Part shown: piece by piece, positions 7,556 to 36,796 of the stretch | Position numbering within the stretch: position 1 is the stretch's first letter | Layout: each line of letters starts with the position of its first letter | DNA from: an uncultured Gammaproteobacteria bacterium | Lineage (GTDB): Bacteria; Patescibacteriota; Patescibacteriia; Magasanikbacterales; GWA2-37-8 | Assembly: GCA_964482695.1 (NCBI GenBank) | Contig: CAYZYP010000004.1 | Location: forward strand, 1-62,385 | DNA length: 62,385 nucleotides | Direction: 5' to 3' | Program-made: the position numbers and the translations under genes | The notes under the pieces: generated by a model | Told to the model about the DNA's origin: nothing | The model's input: the letters and a program-made list of their open reading frames with translations, nothing else | Databases searched by the model: none

Positions 7556-7687
7556 ATAAATAGTAATTTTTATTTGCCTATATTATATCATATTTATAAA
7601 TTAAGTTAAAGCCAAGATAATATCAATAATGTTCATTTTTCTGATAAAATATGGTATAATATTAACATTGTATTAAAATACGCAAGT

Positions 7688-9379
7688 ATGCAAATTAATA
7701 ATGAAAAATTTAAGCGACTTTTAGTGGATTCTGGCTATGTGGCTGAAGCGAATTTTGACGCGGTTAGTAAAGAGGCTGAAAAAAGCGGTAAAACAATAGA
7801 AGAAATTCTACTGGCTGACGATTTAATTAAAGATGAGCAGTTGGGCCAACTTATAGCCGAAGAGCAGGGTTTTAATTTTGTTAATTTAAAAAAAGAAAAA
7901 ATAAACGAAGAGGTGCTTAATTTGGTGCCAGAACTCATGGCGCGCTCTAAAGGGGTTGTCGCTTTTAGTCGCGATAAACAAGGTTTTAAGGTGGGGATGA
8001 CTAACCCAAACGATTTAGAAGTTAAGCATTTGTTAGAAAAACGTTTAGGTGACAAAATTCAACCTTTTTATATTACTGACAAAGATTTTAATGACGCTTT
8101 TTTCCAATACAAAGCCAGTTTAAAAGATGAGTTTGCCAACGTCCTTAAACAAATGGACGAAGCGTCTCTGTCCCGCCAACAACGAGATGCTCTAACTGTT
8201 AAATTAGTTGATATTTTATTAGAATATGGTTATCAAAATAAAGCTTCTGATATTCACGTGGAGCCATACCCGGCAAAAGTAGTTGTGCGTTTTCGTATTG
8301 ATGGTGTAATGCATGATGTTTTGGAAATTAAAAAAGAATTAGCCGAATTTATAGTTACTCGTATTAAAATTTTATCCAAGATGCGTACCGATGAACACCA
8401 AGCGGCGCAAGACGGTAAAATTCGCTATGTTGGAACAGAAGAAAAAATAGATATTCGTGTTTCAGTATTACCGGTAACTTATGGCGAAAATGTAGTTATG
8501 CGATTATTATCAGCCAAAAGTCGTCAGTTTAATTTGTTAGATTTGGGTTTGGGAGAAGACGACCTAAAAAAAGTTAAACGAGCTATTAAAAATCCGCATG
8601 GAATGATTTTGGCAACCGGTCCAACTGGTAGCGGTAAAACTACTACCTTGTATGCCTTAATAAAGATTTTAAATAAACGAGATGTTCATATTTCAACCAT
8701 TGAGGATCCGGTTGAGTATGATATTGACGGCGTTAGTCAAATTCAGGTTAATCCTAAAACAAATCTAACTTTCGCGCAGGGTTTGCGTTCCATTGTGCGC
8801 CAAGATCCGGACATTATAATGGTTGGCGAAATTCGCGACGAAGAAACCGCCGGTATAGCGGTAAATTCCGCTCTAACAGGACATTTAGTATTATCTACTA
8901 TCCACACTAATGACGCGGCTACTACTTTGCCGCGTTTAATAGATATGAAAGTAGAACCATTTTTAGTCGCTTCTACTATCAAGTTGATTATCGCTCAAAG
9001 ATTAATTCGTAAAATTTGTGAAAAATGTCGTGTGTCGTACAAGATAAACGACGAAATTAAAATGATTTTGGAGAGCGAACCAGTTGTTAAAGAAATATTA
9101 CAAAGCAAGGGCTACAAGAATTTAGAAAAATTACGTTTATACAAAGGTAAAGGTTGTAAGGTATGCGACAATACTGGTTATATCGGGCGAATAGGTATTT
9201 TTGAAATTATGGAAATGACCGATGAAATTAGAAAAATGATTTTGCAAAGATCTTCAAGCGATGAAATAACCGAGCAGGCCTACAAAGATGGTATGCGTTC
9301 AATGATGGAAGATGGTCTTGAAAAAGTTTTAGAAGGACAGACTACTTTGGAAGAAGTGATTAGAGTGGCGAGGAGATAA
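7688..9379 (+). CDS. pilB: type IV pilus assembly ATPase (GspE/PilB family)
   Basis: 563 aa. Walker A 'GPTGSGKTTT', Asp box, Walker B 'IMVGEIRD', His box 'TGHLVLSTIHTN', and the tetracysteine motif CEKC...CKVC. Confidence 0.9.
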   Translation: MQINNEKFKRLLVDSGYVAEANFDAVSKEAEKSGKTIEEILLADDLIKDEQLGQLIAEEQGFNFVNLKKEKINEEVLNLVPELMARSKGVVAFSRDKQGFKVGMTNPNDLEVKHLLEKRLGDKIQPFYITDKDFNDAFFQYKASLKDEFANVLKQMDEASLSRQQRDALTVKLVDILLEYGYQNKASDIHVEPYPAKVVVRFRIDGVMHDVLEIKKELAEFIVTRIKILSKMRTDEHQAAQDGKIRYVGTEEKIDIRVSVLPVTYGENVVMRLLSAKSRQFNLLDLGLGEDDLKKVKRAIKNPHGMILATGPTGSGKTTTLYALIKILNKRDVHISTIEDPVEYDIDGVSQIQVNPKTNLTFAQGLRSIVRQDPDIIMVGEIRDEETAGIAVNSALTGHLVLSTIHTNDAATTLPRLIDMKVEPFLVASTIKLIIAQRLIRKICEKCRVSYKINDEIKMILESEPVVKEILQSKGYKNLEKLRLYKGKGCKVCDNTGYIGRIGIFEIMEMTDEIRKMILQRSSSDEITEQAYKDGMRSMMEDGLEKVLEGQTTLEEVIRVARR

Positions 9380-31694: not shown

Positions 31695-31779
31695 GGAGGA
31701 TTCGCCTAGTGGTCTATGGCGCCGCCCTGGAAAGGCGGTTGGTCGAAAGGCCTCGTGGGTTCGACTCCCACATCCTCCG
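31695..31779 (+). tRNA. tRNA-Ser (anticodon GGA), no encoded CCA
   Basis: Acceptor GGAGGAT/ATCCTCC, 3-bp D stem, anticodon stem CCGCC/GGCGG with loop CU-GGA-AA, long variable arm, T arm GTGGG-TTCGACT-CCCAC, discriminator G. Confidence 0.9.
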
Positions 31780-31866
31780 CCTTCGGTCGCCGAAGCTTTA
31801 GCGACGGCGACCTTGTAAAATAGCGAATATTGAAAAGGTGTATATTCTAATTTAGAAAGTGGAATA

Positions 31867-32070
31867 GTGAAAATTTTAGCGCCGGCTGTCAAAAAAGCGA
31901 AAAAGATGCCTGGTAATTTAGTTAACAACGCGGTAAAAATTGATGTCAAAATGGTAACAGAAAAATTAAAAATTAATCCACTAATAAAAAAGCTAGTCCA
32001 AAAAAAACAGCTTAAAATAGTTGGGGCGTATTATCATTTAGAAAGCGGGATGGTAGAGATTTTAAAATAA
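31867..32070 (+). pseudogene. C-terminal remnant of a beta-class carbonic anhydrase
   Basis: The GTG-initiated 67-aa ORF ends '...PLIKKLVQKKQLKIVGAYYHLESGMVEIL', like the last ~55 residues of beta-CAs. The ~150 N-terminal residues carrying the zinc ligands are absent. Confidence 0.45.
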
Positions 32071-32074
32071 TTTT

Positions 32075-32731
32075 ATGTCCGACATTATCACGACCTATAA
32101 ACTTGATGACTTGGATCAACCAATGCCAATGAACAGAGAAGAGTTTTACCAAGAACAGATAGAGGTATACAAAGAAACAGGCAAACCAACACGCGCCACA
32201 GCGATCGTGCAAATTCTTTTATTTACCCCGGGTAAAGAAATTATTGTTCAAAAACGTTCTAATACTAAAAAACACAATCCAGGTTTAATGGACAAAAGTA
32301 TCGGTGGCCATATTCTTTTTAGCGATTCAGCCAATTATACAGCTATGGTGGAAACACTGCAGGAGCTAACAGTGCCATCTATTGTTTTGCCCAATGAAGA
32401 AAATTTTAAAAAGACTTTTAAATTATTGAAAAATTTTCTTAATAATCTAACAATAGTTCAGTTTATAGATAGTCACACCAATAATTTTATAAAAGTTTTT
32501 GAAGAAGGGTCAGCTAAAATAGCTAGCAAATATTATTTTTATTTAGGGATTTATGGCGGGGCTATCAAACCATCAGACAAAGAAGCGGCTGGTGTTTTAT
32601 TTTATAAATATGACAATTTAAAAAAAGAATTAAACAGTGACAAAACAAGAGGGTTGTATACCGATGATTTACATTTTTTTATCAATAAATACGACGGTCG
32701 GATTCAAGAATTTTTGCGGATTTTAGAATAA
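32075..32731 (+). CDS. Nudix-fold protein with a degenerate Nudix box
   Basis: 'GGHILFSDSANYTAMVETLQELTV' loosely follows GX5EX7REUXEEXGU, but several catalytic positions are substituted. Confidence 0.4.
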   Translation: MSDIITTYKLDDLDQPMPMNREEFYQEQIEVYKETGKPTRATAIVQILLFTPGKEIIVQKRSNTKKHNPGLMDKSIGGHILFSDSANYTAMVETLQELTVPSIVLPNEENFKKTFKLLKNFLNNLTIVQFIDSHTNNFIKVFEEGSAKIASKYYFYLGIYGGAIKPSDKEAAGVLFYKYDNLKKELNSDKTRGLYTDDLHFFINKYDGRIQEFLRILE

Positions 32732-32800
32732 GGTTATAAATACAAAAATTTGACATTTGTTTTTCAATGTAGTTAGATAGATATAATAAGCAGAAAAAAT

Positions 32801-33109
32801 ATGTGGCAAAAAATATTTCGTTTTATTTTCCCTTCTCTTTCCCCGCAAGAATTAAAGAAAAAATATAATCTGCCAGCTAGTTTAAAGTTGGATTTTAATA
32901 TTACCAAAGATGGTTGGTATACAGCCGAATGTCCGGAAATTCCTGGTTTATTCACGCAAGCTCGCAGCCAACAAGAATTACTAGAAATGATTAACGACGC
33001 GATATTAACTTATTTTGATATTCCCAAGAAAGAAGCAGATTACGTGTATAATCAACTAAACATCAATGGCCAAGTAGTGCGTTATAATGCTCAGTTGCAG
33101 ACTGCTTAA
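32801..33109 (+). CDS. HicB-like (UPF0150) antitoxin-fold protein
   Basis: 'DGWYTAECPEIPGLFTQARSQQELLEMINDAILTYF' matches the HicB N-terminal fold pattern. No C-terminal DNA-binding domain is present. Confidence 0.55.
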   Translation: MWQKIFRFIFPSLSPQELKKKYNLPASLKLDFNITKDGWYTAECPEIPGLFTQARSQQELLEMINDAILTYFDIPKKEADYVYNQLNINGQVVRYNAQLQTA

Positions 33110-33131
33110 ATAGCCAAAAAGAGGGGGGATT

Positions 33132-33389
33132 ATGGGAGGGTATAATTTTAATCGTAAACAATGTGTACATTCTTTAGAAAAGATTGGTTTTTGTTTAGGA
33201 AATAAAAGAAGAGGCAGACACGATAAATATAACGCGCCACAAAAATATCTGAATAATTTACCACTAACCGCTTGTCCGTTTGTTATGGTACCACGCCACA
33301 ATGAGTTAAAATTGCAAGAAAAAATAATTAAAGAGATACGTTTAATAGGGGGCCAGGAGTTGGTAGAAAATTTTTTAAGAAATTTATAA
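33132..33389 (+). CDS. HicA-like mRNA interferase toxin
   Basis: 85 aa. 'CVHSLEKIGFCLGNKRRGRHDKY...VPRHNELKLQEKIIKEI' follows the HicA/YcfA pattern (GxH catalytic region). It sits 22 nt after the HicB-like ORF. Confidence 0.55.
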   Translation: MGGYNFNRKQCVHSLEKIGFCLGNKRRGRHDKYNAPQKYLNNLPLTACPFVMVPRHNELKLQEKIIKEIRLIGGQELVENFLRNL

Positions 33390-33443
33390 CAAAGATTGTT
33401 AAAAAAAACTCTTATTGAGATTTTTTTTTGGGGGGGTCGGCCA

Positions 33444-33472
33444 TTGACAAAAAGTTATTTTTGTGCTAGTAT
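33444..33472 (+). promoter_or_regulatory. strong sigma70 promoter (extended -10)
   Basis: TTGACA (33444-33449), 17-nt spacer ending TGC, then TAGTAT (33467-33472). Confidence 0.65.
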
Positions 33473-33479
33473 AAACACA

Positions 33480-33640
33480 TCTTTAAAACTTATGATTTTT
33501 CTTTCCTGCTTTCAGTTGGCAGGTGGCTCCTACAAAGGGCACAAATTGTGTTTATTTAGAGAAAAAGCATAAGTTTTAAACTTCAAAATTTACTTTAATT
33601 TACACAAAAAAGCACCGCTCAGACCGGCGTTTTTCTTTTT
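33480..33640 (+). ncRNA. structured leader or small RNA
   Basis: TTTAAAACTTATGATTTTTCT (33483-33503) pairs with AGAAAAAGCATAAGTTTTAAA (33559-33579) with 1 mismatch. Inner hairpin CCTGC-N9-GCAGG. A weak hairpin plus T5CT5 lies at 33611-33640. Confidence 0.45.
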
Positions 33641-33675
33641 GCGCGTTTTGTGGGGGCCAACACAAGGAGAGAACC

Positions 33676-33966
33676 ATGGCAAAGCGACTTCCCAAGGTGT
33701 TACGAGGCAATCCACTGATTAGGCAAATGATGGAGGCGACCGATCCTGAAGATGCAATGTTCGGCTATCCGCCGATTCCTCGGACATGTGATTTCTGTTT
33801 TTACCGCCATCGAGCAGGGTACCCCAAGGATCCGGACTGCATGCTGGCCTCGAAGGAGGCGAAAAAGCAGTTTGGCATTCCCGAAAACGAGCCGATGCCA
33901 GAAAAAATCGACGGAGTACCCGTCGGTTTTTATTGTCGCAATTGGACGGACTTTGGCGCGGAATGA
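33676..33966 (+). CDS. GC-rich small Cys-containing protein of unknown function
   Basis: 96-aa ORF preceded by AAGGAG (33664-33669). One 60-nt line counted by hand is 32/60 G+C, against 11/60 in the flank. Confidence 0.6.
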   Translation: MAKRLPKVLRGNPLIRQMMEATDPEDAMFGYPPIPRTCDFCFYRHRAGYPKDPDCMLASKEAKKQFGIPENEPMPEKIDGVPVGFYCRNWTDFGAE

Positions 33967-34008
33967 ATCAGGGCAAACTAGCTAAAAAAACCAAAAGGAG
34001 ACAAAAGA

Positions 34009-34134
34009 ATGAAGCAAACGAGTCTGGCAACCACTTGCGGACTCACTATGTTTTTAAAATTTGAAAATATAGTGAGCAAGTGGTTGTCAACAACTAAAGA
34101 TAGATTGAAGTGGCTTGAAAAAGAAAAATCATAA
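34009..34134 (+). CDS. 41-codon ORF (MKQTSLATTCGLTMFLKFENIVSKWLSTTKDRLKWLEKEKS), uncertain
   Basis: GGAG lies 8 nt upstream. The ORF body contains an 18-bp interrupted hairpin (34028-34086), so it may be an RNA element instead. Confidence 0.3.
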   Translation: MKQTSLATTCGLTMFLKFENIVSKWLSTTKDRLKWLEKEKS

Positions 34135-34146
34135 TTTTAAATTAAA

Positions 34147-34175
34147 AACGTTCCGATTAAGTCGGAGCGTTTTTT
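34147..34175. terminator. rho-independent terminator (usable from both sides)
   Basis: AACGTTCCGA-TTAAG-TCGGAGCGTT followed by T5 and preceded by A5. Confidence 0.75.
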
Positions 34176-34236
34176 AGTTTTTTTAATTTCTGTTTTAATT
34201 AAACTAGACCAATAACCAGACTAATTATAGACTGAT

Positions 34237-34608
34237 TTACTTTTTCTTCTTACCAATATTTGGCTCACCGCTATAGGTGGGAGAAATATATTGGCCAACA
34301 GGTTGTTTAAGAAGTTTGGGTATTAATTTTTGAATAGAATTACTTTGTTCGTTGTTAATAGCTAAAACAGGAATTTGTAGAGTATAGGCCAGCGTATTGG
34401 CAACCACTGCCGCGATACGCGTACTGGTAAAACCGCCAGCGCCAACCACGCACATAATGCCGTTTAGTTTTTGTTTTTGTAAAATATCATCAATACATTC
34501 CAATAATTCACGATTCTGGCCGTGATATTTTTTTTCACTGTATTTTTTTTCGTCAAACAACGCCAAATGGGCAATGTCTTTTTCCGAAAGATTGATTAAG
34601 AGGTACAT
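34237..34608 (-). CDS. tsaB: short TsaB/YeaZ-like protein (t6A biosynthesis partner, N-terminal domain only)
   Basis: 123 aa. 'LLINLSEKDIAHLALF...VVGAGGFTSTRIAAVVANTLAY' matches the YeaZ N-terminal domain. Confidence 0.65.
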   Translation of the reverse strand: MYLLINLSEKDIAHLALFDEKKYSEKKYHGQNRELLECIDDILQKQKLNGIMCVVGAGGFTSTRIAAVVANTLAYTLQIPVLAINNEQSNSIQKLIPKLLKQPVGQYISPTYSGEPNIGKKKK

Positions 34609-34611
34609 ATT

Positions 34612-34798
34612 TGAACTGGTTTAGTGTTGTTACTCGATTTTATTTTGAATTAGCCAATATAATGGCGTCAAATTTCGCCTGTCATTCCGACGACACAGGA
34701 GGAATCTCTGTCTCGCCAAATTGGCCAATTGGACAGAGATCCCTCACCCCTGCGACGGGGATTCGGGATGACAATTGTCGAAATCCTAAATGAGTTCA
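34612..34798. mobile_element. MITE-like element A (GC-rich nested palindromes between 14-nt inverted termini)
   Basis: Termini are TGAACTGGTTTAGT (34612-34625) and CCTAAATGAGTTCA (34785-34798). Internal dyads: GTCATTCCGA/TCGGGATGAC, GGAATCTCTGTC/GACAGAGATCCC and GCCAAATTGGC. Confidence 0.5.
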
Positions 34799-34831
34799 TT
34801 GTATTTTTAATTATCGTCTTTTTTTAATATA

Positions 34832-34860
34832 TTGTCAATAAAAATATAATATGTTATACT
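34832..34860 (+). promoter_or_regulatory. sigma70-type promoter
   Basis: TTGTCA, 17-nt spacer ending TGT, then TATACT (34855-34860). Confidence 0.5.
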
Positions 34861-34954
34861 TTAATATATAGAATTGGTAGTGAGTTTTGGCTAATTTTAA
34901 ATATATTTTAAAGATAAATCACCACGAGTTCACATTATTCTTAATCAAAAAAAT

Positions 34955-35440
34955 ATGCTCATTGGCATCATCAGTGACACCCATGATAATATTTGGAATT
35001 TAGAAAAAGTTTTAAATAAACTAAAGGCAAAAGGAATTGAGACGCTAATTCATTGTGGTGATTTTTGTGGTCCTTTTATAATCAATATTTTGGCAGAAAC
35101 AAATATGCAAGTACATTGTGTTTTTGGCAATACCGATGATCAATTTAAAGCAACCAGGTTTGCTGACGCGACTAAAAATGTCACTCTGCATGGCGAACTA
35201 GCGGAGATTGAATTAGGCGGTAAAAAAATTGCTTTTACTCATTTACCACAATTTGCCGAAGGCTTGGCTTATACTGGTAAATATGACGTGGTATTTTATG
35301 GTCATACTCATAAAAAAGATAATCAAAAAATTGGTAATTCTTTACTTGTTAATCCAGGTGAAGTTATGGGCAAAGCTGGGGCGCCAACTTTCGCAGTATA
35401 TAACACAGAAAATAACGAAGTTGAATTTAGTGAAATTTAG
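34955..35440 (+). CDS. YfcE/MJ0936-type metallophosphoesterase
   Basis: 161 aa with motifs 'ISDTHDN', 'HCGDF', 'GNTD' and 'GHTH'. Confidence 0.8.
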   Translation: MLIGIISDTHDNIWNLEKVLNKLKAKGIETLIHCGDFCGPFIINILAETNMQVHCVFGNTDDQFKATRFADATKNVTLHGELAEIELGGKKIAFTHLPQFAEGLAYTGKYDVVFYGHTHKKDNQKIGNSLLVNPGEVMGKAGAPTFAVYNTENNEVEFSEI

Positions 35441-35441
35441 T

Positions 35442-35470
35442 TTGCCTATAAAAATAAAATGTGCTACACT
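35442..35470 (+). promoter_or_regulatory. sigma70-type promoter of gdh
   Basis: TTGCCT, 17-nt spacer ending TGC, then TACACT (35465-35470). Confidence 0.5.
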
Positions 35471-35474
35471 TTAA

Positions 35475-35495
35475 ACAACCACCCAAGTGGTTGTT
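35475..35495 (+). promoter_or_regulatory. 5'-terminal stem-loop or operator-like dyad
   Basis: ACAACCAC-CCAA-GTGGTTGT begins about at the predicted +1. The same CAACCAC/GTGGTTG arms recur at 34028-34086. Confidence 0.4.
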
Positions 35496-35527
35496 TTAGA
35501 TAAAGAAACATAAAAATATAATAATTT

Positions 35528-36796
35528 ATGATCACGCAAAAGCAAAAAGGAGACGCGAAGGTTCAAGCCGACGCCTATAGCGGCGCTTTAAAACAATTGG
35601 AAAAGGTCAACAAAAGCATTAATTTAGAGGTAAATATTTATGAACAATTAAAATCACCGCATCGAGTTATCCAAGTTTCAATACCGGTTAAAATGGATAA
35701 TGGCCAAGTAAAAGTTTTCAAAGGGTATCGCTCACAATTTAATAATGCTCGCGGCCCGTACAAAGGTGGTATTCGTTTTCACCCAGAGGTAAACGAATCC
35801 GAAGTAAAAGCCCTAAGCATGTGGATGACTTGGAAATGCGCGGTTGTTGATATTCCACTTGGCGGCGGCAAAGGCGGGGTAATTGTTAATCCTAAAGAAT
35901 TAAGCGTTAGCGAATTAGAAAAACTGTCTCGCGGCTATATGCGCGCCGTTGCCAAATTTATTGGCCCTAATTTAGACATACCAGCCCCAGACGTTTATAC
36001 TGATCCACGAATTATGGGTTGGATGTTAGATGAATACGAAAAAATAGTTGGGTTTCACGCTCCAGGAGTTATAACCGGTAAACCATTAAGTATTGGTGGT
36101 TCAAAAGGGCGTGGTTATTCTACTGCCCAAGGTGGCTATTATGTATTAAACGAAGCGGCTAAAAAATTAAAAATAAAAGAAGGTTCTGACGTGGTTATTC
36201 AAGGTTTTGGCAATGCCGGGGCAAATATGGCAAAAATAGTTAGTGAAAATGGCTATAAGGTAGTAGCTGTAAGCGATTCCAGAGGCGCGGTACAAAATTC
36301 AAAAGGTTTGGATATTAATGCTTTGTTAAAACACAAAGAAAAAACCGGCGGTGTAACTAATTTTAGCGGCGGGAAAAATTTAATTAGTGATATTTTGGAA
36401 CAAGAAGTAAAAGTTTTGGTTTTAGCTGCTTTAGAAAATGCTGTTACTTTGGATAATGTTAACAAAATTAAGGCGCCGTTAGTTATTGAATTAGCCAATG
36501 GCCCGATTAATTTAGATGCTGACGAAGTTTTGGCTAAAAAAAATATTACTGTTGTACCAGATATTTTGGCCAATGCCGGCGGTGTGGGCGTTAGTTATTT
36601 AGAACAAACACAAAACGCGTATAATTATTATTGGTCCGAGAGCCATGTTTTAGAAGAACTACAAAAAATGATGATCAAAGCCTTTGACGAGGTTTGGACA
36701 AAAAAAGAACAATACAAGACCGATGTCCGCATGGGCGCTTATGCCTTGGCTGTAGAACGCGTGGCGCAGTCCATGAGAGATAGAGGGTGGACTTAA
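35528..36796 (+). CDS. gdhA: glutamate dehydrogenase (Glu/Leu/Phe/Val dehydrogenase family)
   Basis: 422 aa with 'GPYKGGIRFHP', 'PLGGGKGGV' and a 'GFGNAGANMA' Rossmann motif. Confidence 0.88.
   Translation: MITQKQKGDAKVQADAYSGALKQLEKVNKSINLEVNIYEQLKSPHRVIQVSIPVKMDNGQVKVFKGYRSQFNNARGPYKGGIRFHPEVNESEVKALSMWMTWKCAVVDIPLGGGKGGVIVNPKELSVSELEKLSRGYMRAVAKFIGPNLDIPAPDVYTDPRIMGWMLDEYEKIVGFHAPGVITGKPLSIGGSKGRGYSTAQGGYYVLNEAAKKLKIKEGSDVVIQGFGNAGANMAKIVSENGYKVVAVSDSRGAVQNSKGLDINALLKHKEKTGGVTNFSGGKNLISDILEQEVKVLVLAALENAVTLDNVNKIKAPLVIELANGPINLDADEVLAKKNITVVPDILANAGGVGVSYLEQTQNAYNYYWSESHVLEELQKMMIKAFDEVWTKKEQYKTDVRMGAYALAVERVAQSMRDRGWT

Follow-up and report, generated by a model that had tools for sequence, protein, structure and literature searches.

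Background

Attenuation and riboswitch leaders such as SAM-I are, in layout, among the described systems closest to the element reported here: a strong promoter is followed by a 5' domain closed by a long helix, and a terminator stands just before the ribosome-binding site (RBS). The ompA, ermC and aprE leaders are 5'-terminal stem-loops that stabilise bacterial mRNAs. At the level of gene content, phage morons are autonomous units inside prophages, and integron cassettes are swapped at one expressed site, the attC core sites R'' and R' reading RYYYAAC and GTTRRRY. The Candidate Phyla Radiation (CPR, Patescibacteria) is almost uncultured and very little is known about gene regulation there. 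Here we describe a compact unit, located between positions 33444 and 34174 of a 62,385-nucleotide stretch of DNA (contig CAYZYP010000004.1, hereafter the window), which comprises a promoter, a structured leader RNA and a 96-codon open reading frame (ORF96) preceded by a Shine-Dalgarno (SD) sequence. The source genome (1.15 Mb, 28 contigs, 36.3% G+C) is that of a groundwater bacterium of the Candidatus Magasanikbacteria type. It is designated G000; other genomes are labelled G and loci L, each with a number. In our preferred reading, which we consider on balance probable, this is a single transcription unit with an attenuator-type leader, lying in a conserved accessory-gene slot downstream of a NUDIX-like gene and carrying exchangeable GC-rich cargo.

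Gene transfer is reported as frequent among groundwater Patescibacteria in passages of PMC12455944, and passages of PMC9297842 describe retention of the anti-SD sequence as variable in CPR. The searched passages of these two papers mention neither the leader nor the link between G+C content and SD use described below, and literature searches retrieved no description of either.

The promoter and leader RNA in the window

The 5' part of the unit contains the following elements:

33444-33472, + strand: sigma-70-type promoter with extended -10 element, TTGACA-N17-TAGTAT with an upstream TG
33479-33585, + strand: leader 5' domain, with the conserved 5' end AUCUUUAAAACUUAUG and a closing helix (P1/P1b) around three small hairpins
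33606-33641, + strand: terminator-like hairpin with A-tract and U-tract (GUUUUUCUUUUUG), including T5CT5; putative attenuator
33648-33669, + strand: small pre-RBS hairpin, TTGTG...CACAA, overlapping the AAGGAG SD at 33664-33669

An earlier interpretation made from the letters of this DNA (the sequence-only reading) had described the promoter and, at the predicted transcript start, a 21-bp stem with inner hairpins. Both were recovered. The closing helix pairs 33482-33504 with 33559-33580 and has a bulge at nucleotide 17. Its 21-nt arms (33482-33502 and 33560-33580) are 95% complementary; CCTGC/GCAGG and CACA/TGTG hairpins lie between them. Folding of the domain 33479-33588 yields -32.4 kcal/mol, with z = -5.3 relative to dinucleotide shuffles, and the z-score of the whole predicted transcript is -6.7. 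The promoter and 5' domain are AT-rich; the climb in G+C begins near the attenuator. The SD lies 6 nt ahead of the ORF96 start codon. Both the homologous leaders and many further GC-rich cassettes of G000 have GC hairpins equivalent to the pre-RBS hairpin ahead of their SD.

The leader element is single-copy in G000. The Rfam check proposed by the sequence-only reading yielded no family: an Rfam 15 cmscan of 32500-35000 at E<=10 returned only sub-threshold chance matches, the best of which (sroD, 26.5 bits for a cut-off of 50) falls on the terminator, and four homologous loci gave nothing at E<=0.1.

Promoters nearly identical to that of the window, including the spacer AAAAGnnATTTTTGTGC, are found in other genera of the family and ahead of every homologous leader, suggesting a clade-wide consensus promoter or operator. 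The form is TTGACA-AAAAGnnATTTTTG-TGCTAnnAT, in which the spacer is a short palindrome, ACAAAAA/TTTTTGT (window 33444-33480). Nearly the same promoter and spacer occur at unrelated loci (L004, L007, L008 and L009) in other genera of the family. On the - strand, terminator-like hairpins with T-runs are present inside the module at 33909-33925 and 33613-33629; these could stop antisense read-through from the convergent tsaB gene.

Conservation of the leader in related genomes

A DNA search of the order with positions 33474-33660 matched G542 at 75% identity over 106 nt (E 7e-14). The G542 leader is directly upstream of a homologue of ORF96, and the two proteins are only 41% identical. The leader also lies upstream of an ORF96 homologue in G604, of a 369-aa guanylate-kinase-like gene in G599 and, in G572, of a gene whose 170-aa Cys-rich product has a C-terminus similar by eye to the ORF96 motif (...FGLGDGHVPEYVLNGQDLGFFCPHW...). 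A more diverged leader precedes the gene of a 197-aa protein in G531, the family of which was not recognised. As judged from sequence and predicted fold, five further genomes of the order have the same leader RNA. This conserved leader, which has no Rfam match, is the main new result of our analysis.

All six leaders follow a common plan. The -10 box is separated by 5-6 nt from a 5' end reading AUCUUUAAAACUYAUG. A closing helix of 7-13 bp is followed by an unpaired base at position 17 and by a second helix segment. The interior hairpins differ in number and sequence among genomes, and a spacer comes next. The 3' part consists of an A-tract, a hairpin and a U-tract (UUUUUUCUU), then a small GC hairpin, the SD and the ATG. 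Every 5' domain folds alone into the shared shape. Shuffle tests gave z = -5.3, -2.9 and -2.9 for the three domains tested, those of G599, G531 and G572 being folded without shuffles. The 5' end and the closing helix are the best conserved parts of the sequence.

The closing helix is maintained by covariation. RNAalifold on the G000 and G542 leaders gives 32 pairs, 2 of them compensatory. A position-by-position pair table for five genomes shows at least six positions of P1/P1b with double changes. Counted from the leader 5' end, these are AU to UA at position 10 (G599), CG to AU at position 11, UA to CG at position 13 (G604), GC to AU or GU at position 16, UA to AU at position 18 (G542, G599) and UA to AU or CG at position 21. 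G-U pairs are tolerated in P1. The proposal that the first ~160 nt are either a small RNA (sRNA) or a cis-regulatory leader is strengthened by these compensatory changes across the five other genomes.

A hairpin with A- and U-tracts is present in 6/6 leaders between the structured 5' domain and the RBS, and those of G542, G599, G531, G604 and G572 are far stronger than that of the window. Of the properties expected of a riboswitch or attenuator-type leader, a terminator at this place and compensatory substitutions were found, the latter in few sequences. Two others were not found in the leaders compared: there is no conserved ligand-binding core, and no conserved antiterminator pairing, mutually exclusive with the terminator, was identified.

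MAFFT misaligned the five 5' domains, and the covariance models were built on two (R1) or three (R2) sequences. R1 was overfitted: even with filters off, the G604 leader came up at no better than E 0.23. R2, built from the attenuator hairpins of three leaders, matches ordinary bidirectional terminators throughout these genomes, including the 3' terminator of the window; it acts as a generic terminator detector and was rejected as a leader-specific model.

The same observations could describe an independent ~160-nt sRNA gene inherited together with the NUDIX-like gene, behind which GC-rich genes landed and are expressed by leaky read-through. Promoter, structured RNA and ordinary-type terminator form a complete transcription unit, which is kept whatever the cargo, and a stable RNA would be expected to show the observed peak of conservation at its 5' end and closing helix. 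We nevertheless regard this as rather unlikely: an SD-led gene follows in 6/6 loci within 25-110 nt, on the same strand and without space for a promoter of its own, the terminator in the window is weak, and no target or partner is known. The sRNA and attenuator readings are not exclusive, since a terminated leader can also act in trans.

The proposed NUDIX-linked slot and its neighbourhood

Two features upstream of the promoter are relevant to the slot:

32075-32731, + strand: NUDIX-like gene, 218 aa, the syntenic anchor; weak Pfam NUDIX match (E 0.007)
32801-33389, + strand: two small ORFs of 102 and 85 aa, possibly HicB/HicA-like, between the NUDIX-like gene and the promoter

Orthologues of the NUDIX-like gene (43-58% identity) are directly upstream of the leader in G542, G604, G599, G531 and G572, ending 40-77 nt ahead of it. 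The gene itself is patchy (14/141 genomes of the order), and in about half of the examined genomes that carry it no leader follows. Being AT-rich and syntenic with the NUDIX-like gene, the promoter and 5' domain would be host-like sequence; they appear to belong to a conserved host slot and not to the foreign cargo. In all six loci the cargo is compositionally atypical. The G542 cargo is an operon in which a second 96-aa GC-rich gene comes after the homologue of ORF96.

Only in G000 does the pair of small ORFs stand between the NUDIX-like gene and the promoter; it is absent from the five other NUDIX-leader loci. It gave a match to HicB_lk_antitox at E 0.014 (15.9 bits for a Pfam cut-off of 27); the 85-aa ORF has no significant Pfam family, no HicA match and no PADLOC match.

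The unit is surrounded by tRNA-Ser, the NUDIX-like gene, tsaB and the glutamate dehydrogenase gene. In G458 (L014) a homologue of ORF96 is found in the same tsaB-NUDIX interval in the opposite orientation. The tsaB products of G000 and G458 are 63% identical, compared with 30% between G458 and its congener G009. This conflicts with glutamate dehydrogenase, which follows taxonomy (75%, 72% and 81%), and the interval therefore has its own history, which suggests block exchange or replacement. No cassette follows tsaB in G009, and in synteny comparisons with 25 relatives tsaB and the gene on the tRNA-Ser side are not linked elsewhere.

For these comparisons tsaB (window 34237-34608) was set against L014 and L025. 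In L014 a 36-codon GC-rich ORF with its own AAGGAG lies divergently between tsaB and the cassette promoter (~7631-7741, - strand). Upstream of the NUDIX-like gene, tRNA-Ser(GGA) and then a 67-codon ORF lie within window 31695-32070, the latter flanked by a 36-nt direct repeat (31843-31878 and 32029-32064, 78% identical).

ORF96 and its family

The cargo of the window is a single small gene:

33676-33966, + strand: ORF96, 96 codons, a four-Cys protein (C-x2-C-x13-C-x31-C) of an unnamed family

The sequence-only reading had pointed to this ORF for its perfect AAGGAG, its four cysteines and its high G+C, all of which were verified, and ORF96 is a real gene. A word-index protein search matched only ORF96 itself. 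HMMER against 1.84 billion representatives retrieved 64 proteins at E<=1e-3, 17 of them at E<=1e-10. In a 26-sequence alignment C38, C41, C55 and F66 are invariant and C87 is present in at least 90% of the sequences; the family consensus is LRGNPFIG...PR.C..CF.R...DC...AK..FGI..E.LP..DG.EVG.YCP. In longer members the ORF96 domain is always C-terminal, and Pfam recognised no family in the N-terminal extensions of ten of them. ORF96 has no match in Pfam, PHROG, NCBIfam or PADLOC.

AlphaFold2, run from the alignment, predicts a confident model (pLDDT 92.2, pTM 0.81) with little regular secondary structure. The best Foldseek hits in PDB and BFVD reach only E ~2-3, VIA-align against 48,161 chains gave none with Z>=2, and all matches of a profile search of PDB have E>1. 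The absence of a structural match at these thresholds does not prove a new fold. A zinc ribbon had been suggested; the searches lend it no support. Zinc ribbons and rubredoxin-like Cys4 domains have two CxxC knuckles and a recognisable fold, whereas ORF96 has one CxxC (C38-C41), the two remaining cysteines being single, and no such fold was recognised. From the cysteine pattern and the model, the protein is probably a compact metal-binding domain with a Cys4 site.

Every named homologue comes from a metagenome-assembled genome (MAG) that is either of Candidatus Magasanikbacteria or unclassified. The family profile is found in 2/401 sampled genomes of the phylum and in 7/240 genomes of the order, the latter including 1/99 others in the family of G000 and 5/107 in a second family. 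The same arrangement is seen in independent MAGs from other studies. In 5/6 of the order genomes the gene is SD-led, 15-27 G+C points above its flanks and has a G+C at third codon positions (GC3) of 0.56-0.83; these copies are only 40-53% identical to ORF96. Other GC-rich (0.52-0.60), AAGGAG-led genes lie on AT-rich contigs of further Magasanikbacteria MAGs, at L013 3237-3644 (-) and 10500-10901 (+) and at L022 1134-1421 (-). The homologue at L015 5995-6291 shows the reverse contrast (34% G+C, GC3 0.13, on a contig of ~49% G+C) and is still SD-led; it adjoins a NOG1-like GTPase gene that looks archaeal by eye.

Composition and Shine-Dalgarno use in the genome

In 300-nt windows the G+C content of G000 averages 36.3% (sd 5.2%), compared with 52% for ORF96. 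Both the G+C at the three codon positions (0.57/0.43/0.56 against 0.44/0.34/0.31 for 704 long ORFs) and the codon adaptation index (CAI) of 0.51, within the lowest 1% of genes, are outlying, in agreement with the sequence-only reading, which had noticed G+C far above the flanks; the module is self-contained, foreign in composition and patchy. Selection for mRNA hairpins does not explain this composition, because three family members have coding sequences with structure at the level of shuffles (z = -0.35, -1.1 and +1.0). The idea that the high G+C is caused by a "hairpin-packed" coding sequence was rejected for the family.

As the sequence-only reading had noticed for the window, nearly all other genes lack an SD. 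An SD-like motif precedes 5.0% of the 704 long ORFs and 5.1% of random positions; with two such similar frequencies, use of SD sites is not a general property of this genome. The 16S rRNA gene of G000 is not assembled, and its relatives retain the anti-SD GGATCACCTCCTT, so that SD-led initiation is possible. High G+C and SD are linked in this genome: 14/27 ORFs of at least 40 codons preceded by AAGGAG-N5-9-ATG have a G+C of at least 0.47, a level reached by 7.4% of background ORFs. G000 has about 20-25 GC-rich, SD-led genes dispersed across its contigs, and the module of the window is one of them and not unique. Members of this class have more stable 5' untranslated regions (UTRs) (-12.1 against -6.6 kcal/mol, p = 1e-5, partly from the higher G+C) and C-rich 3' UTRs (33% C against 15%, p = 3e-4), the C-rich tract being missing from the unit of the window.

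Several further properties of the class were noted. A small GCCCAA..TGGGC-type hairpin is found right upstream of the SD, and C-rich, G-poor tracts (CCCACC, CTCCCAC) directly follow the stop codon, for example at C2:36730-37407, C23:8459-8785, C1:91797-93098, C5:20026-20352, C3:5828-6319 and C9:1095-3672. By eye, several of the genes resemble nucleotide enzymes (cytidine-deaminase-like, nucleoside-phosphorylase-like and histidine-phosphatase-like). A repeat of ~70 nt (AAAGCAGTTATCCGTTTGCCTTTTTGCCT...GGCAAAAAGTTTTCCGACTACTTTTTT) has at least 10 copies in the genome (C1:91544, C1:151111, C1:185118, C2:80145, C3:39981, C8:7531, C9:21154, C13:19467, C13:12335 and C17:19603), one of them directly upstream of a GC-rich acyl-ACP-reductase-like gene. 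CTATG-footed palindromes were considered as a genome-wide repeat family and rejected, just three perfect cases being present.

Such composition, raised in G+C at all three codon positions with a very low CAI, together with the rarity of the family in phylum and order, would also fit a recent import of the whole module from a GC-rich, SD-using donor outside the clade (phage, plasmid or host bacterium). By sequence features, the closest ESM-Atlas clusters consist of viral hypothetical proteins (score 0.91), which is no more than a lead. The sequence-only reading had favoured such an origin, which we find fairly improbable. No relatives of ORF96 were found in PHROGs, among GenBank phages or PLSDB plasmids, or in IMG/VR by pattern scans with two sub-alignments, so that a phage or plasmid source finds no backing, and the named homologues come only from Magasanikbacteria or unclassified MAGs. 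The promoter and leader are AT-rich and clade-typical. That the acquisition was recent is doubtful, as the distant, SD-led homologues in five other AT-rich genomes are equally GC-rich, which implies either many independent recent imports or long persistence.

The 3' part of the unit

Downstream of ORF96 four features were identified:

34009-34134, + strand: 41-codon ORF with AAGGAG-N8-ATG; probably not a gene
34025-34089, + strand: 29-bp 3'-UTR hairpin, -38.1 kcal/mol, z = -8.9
34120-34141, + strand: third copy of the stem arm, a direct repeat of 33560-33580 and inverted relative to 33482-33504
34144-34174, + strand: bidirectional intrinsic terminator, shared with the convergent tsaB and matched by R2

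The terminator corresponds to that predicted by the sequence-only reading. The 41-codon ORF of the same reading does have its own AAGGAG 8 nt upstream and does overlap a hairpin, here of 29 bp. It is nevertheless probably not a gene: among 5.8 billion proteins it matches only itself, it is absent from homologous loci, and to a large extent it is the coding image of the hairpin. The 3' UTRs of relatives and of other cassettes contain GC-stem or AT-loop hairpins.

The third arm copy, not listed previously, is complementary to the 5' arm at 20/22 positions. Its partner in the minimum-energy structure of the complete transcript is the 5' end. The two alternative duplexes have nearly equal energies, -17.5 kcal/mol for the 5' arm with the 3' arm and -16.9 kcal/mol for the 5' arm with the third copy. 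When the third copy is blocked in folding, the pyrimidine-rich part of the 5' arm is able to pair with the RBS. The match between the ends (18/20 in the window) was reached by 1/600 shuffled pairings and is not shared by other cassettes. The copy is not conserved in G542 and G604, and a 5'-3' closing stem was rejected both as a conserved feature and as one of the class. The third copy may have arisen by local duplication, or may be an end-to-end clamp of the mRNA or a junction repeat of the cargo.

The last of these possibilities belongs to a wider one, in which the inverted repeats act as DNA recombination sites for cassette exchange, similar to integron attC/attI or to terminal repeats, and the direct repeats 33560-33580 and 34120-34141 are duplicated junctions. 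In its favour, cargo is replaced at a fixed site, the hairpin combines a conserved stem and an extrahelical base with an interior that varies, the GC-rich part is framed exactly by the direct repeats, and the same gene family is inverted in G458. Set against this, the repeat is single-copy in the genome, and its duplication is missing from G542 and G604 and does not characterise the class; the G-U pairs tolerated in the stem suit RNA over DNA symmetry; and by eye the arms TTTAAAACTTATG and CATAAGTTTTAAA do not fit the attC core consensus. No integrase or transposase was seen in the homologous loci, and no recombinase was noticed among the ORFs of 32000-36000 (six of them Pfam-scanned; the whole genome was not searched for IntI). 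We consider recombination sites of this kind quite improbable. GC-rich islands in AT-rich genomes are often RNA genes, and the whole-transcript fold noted above would suit one, but a structured non-coding RNA, or an assembly chimera, is effectively refuted by the 64 protein homologues with their invariant cysteines and confident fold, by the shuffle-level structure of the coding sequence, by the lack of an Rfam match and by the same arrangement in independent MAGs of other studies.

Proposed mechanism and significance

Under the preferred reading of an attenuator-type leader in a NUDIX-linked slot, a strong promoter typical of the clade would start an RNA whose first base opens the conserved leader. 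This leader would consist of a 5' domain of ~105 nt, a terminator-like hairpin with U-tract, a small hairpin and a canonical SD. The long bulged closing helix, predicted to begin 3 nt from the RNA 5' end, might protect the transcript from 5'-end-dependent decay or mark it for double-strand-specific processing. Because of the internal terminator only a fraction of transcripts would reach the gene (attenuation, perhaps regulated), and the ~160-nt RNA would be the default product of internal termination. The SD would be required because a GC-rich, structured mRNA could not use the SD-independent initiation of AT-rich genes. The unit would close with the 29-bp hairpin and the terminator. The NUDIX-like gene, promoter and leader would form a conserved host platform, and the segment from SD through gene to 3' UTR an exchangeable cargo, drawn from a GC-rich gene pool circulating among Magasanikbacteria-type genomes.

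A number of points weigh against this scheme. The transcript start, termination at T5CT5 and read-through are all predicted, and we infer from sequence the function of both the leader (attenuator or sRNA) and the protein. The hairpin with T5CT5 named by the sequence-only reading is present (~33606-33641), but its stem is weak on the + strand; a terminator scan scored the - strand only, and R2 does not detect it. Just six leaders are known, several of them spotted by eye, and the strict pattern ATCTTTWAAWCTYATG-N50-80-ATRAGW, found in exactly 4/240 genomes and never in the reversed control, was derived from the same four sequences that it recovers. The interior of the 5' domain is not conserved, which makes a ligand-binding aptamer unlikely. 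The relatives at L013 and L014 express the gene from a shorter, one-hairpin leader, and the long leader is therefore not required for an ORF96-type gene; these short leaders likewise open with a hairpin at the transcript start. Finally, the donor of the GC-rich cargo was not found, and a metal-binding role for ORF96 is drawn only from its cysteines and predicted model.

A bolder proposal is that Magasanikbacteria-type CPR possess a dedicated "expression slot" for exchangeable SD-led GC-rich genes, in which the leader, as a new class of regulatory RNA or as a recombination hairpin used both as RNA and as DNA, gates a special gene pool. It is speculative and, in our estimate, more likely wrong than right by some distance. 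If true, it would reveal the way in which streamlined, SD-independent genomes acquire and express genes of foreign composition, and it would supply a native promoter and leader for gene expression in these organisms. The locus in any case provides a conserved leader RNA that Rfam lacks, supported by covariation and with the layout of an attenuator, and an unnamed four-Cys family with a confident predicted fold and no match to a solved structure at the thresholds used. It also ties SD use to high G+C, two recurring oddities of the genome, and at least one of the genes concerned is in a slot that appears to swap cargo.

Comparison with known systems

Among small Cys4 domains (zinc ribbons, rubredoxin knuckles and HiPIP-type proteins), ORF96 is similar in its ~90 residues, little secondary structure, single CxxC knuckle with two distant cysteines and richness in aromatic residues. 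It differs in having no sequence or structure match to any of them.

Like phage morons and ORFan islets, the unit has its own promoter, a small ORFan, a terminator, odd composition, patchiness and variable position. It is autonomous, as morons are, but no prophage context and no phage relatives were found, and its promoter and leader are host-like and syntenic. Moreover, the class to which it belongs is genome-wide (~20-25 genes) and tied to SD use in a genome otherwise without it.

With integron cassettes it shares a small, compositionally odd, SD-bearing ORFan cargo apparently swapped at one expressed site, a hairpin with a conserved stem, bulged base and variable loop, and perhaps an adjoining toxin-antitoxin pair, if the two small ORFs are HicB/HicA-like. 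Unlike them, it shows no integrase and no attC consensus, its hairpin is 5' of the gene within the transcript, the cargo is one unit of one or two genes and not an array, and the G-U pairs point to RNA.

The ompA, ermC and aprE stabiliser stem-loops resemble the leader in that its helix begins ~3 nt from the predicted 5' end. Here, in contrast, the predicted helix is much longer, ~22 bp with a bulge, enough for a double-strand RNase substrate, and a terminator follows.

The layout common to attenuation and riboswitch leaders is reproduced: a strong promoter, a 5' domain closed by a long helix kept by covariation, and a terminator just before the RBS. The leader differs from them in belonging to no Rfam family, in its unconserved interior junction, in the lack of an evident ligand pocket and in its presence ahead of unrelated genes.

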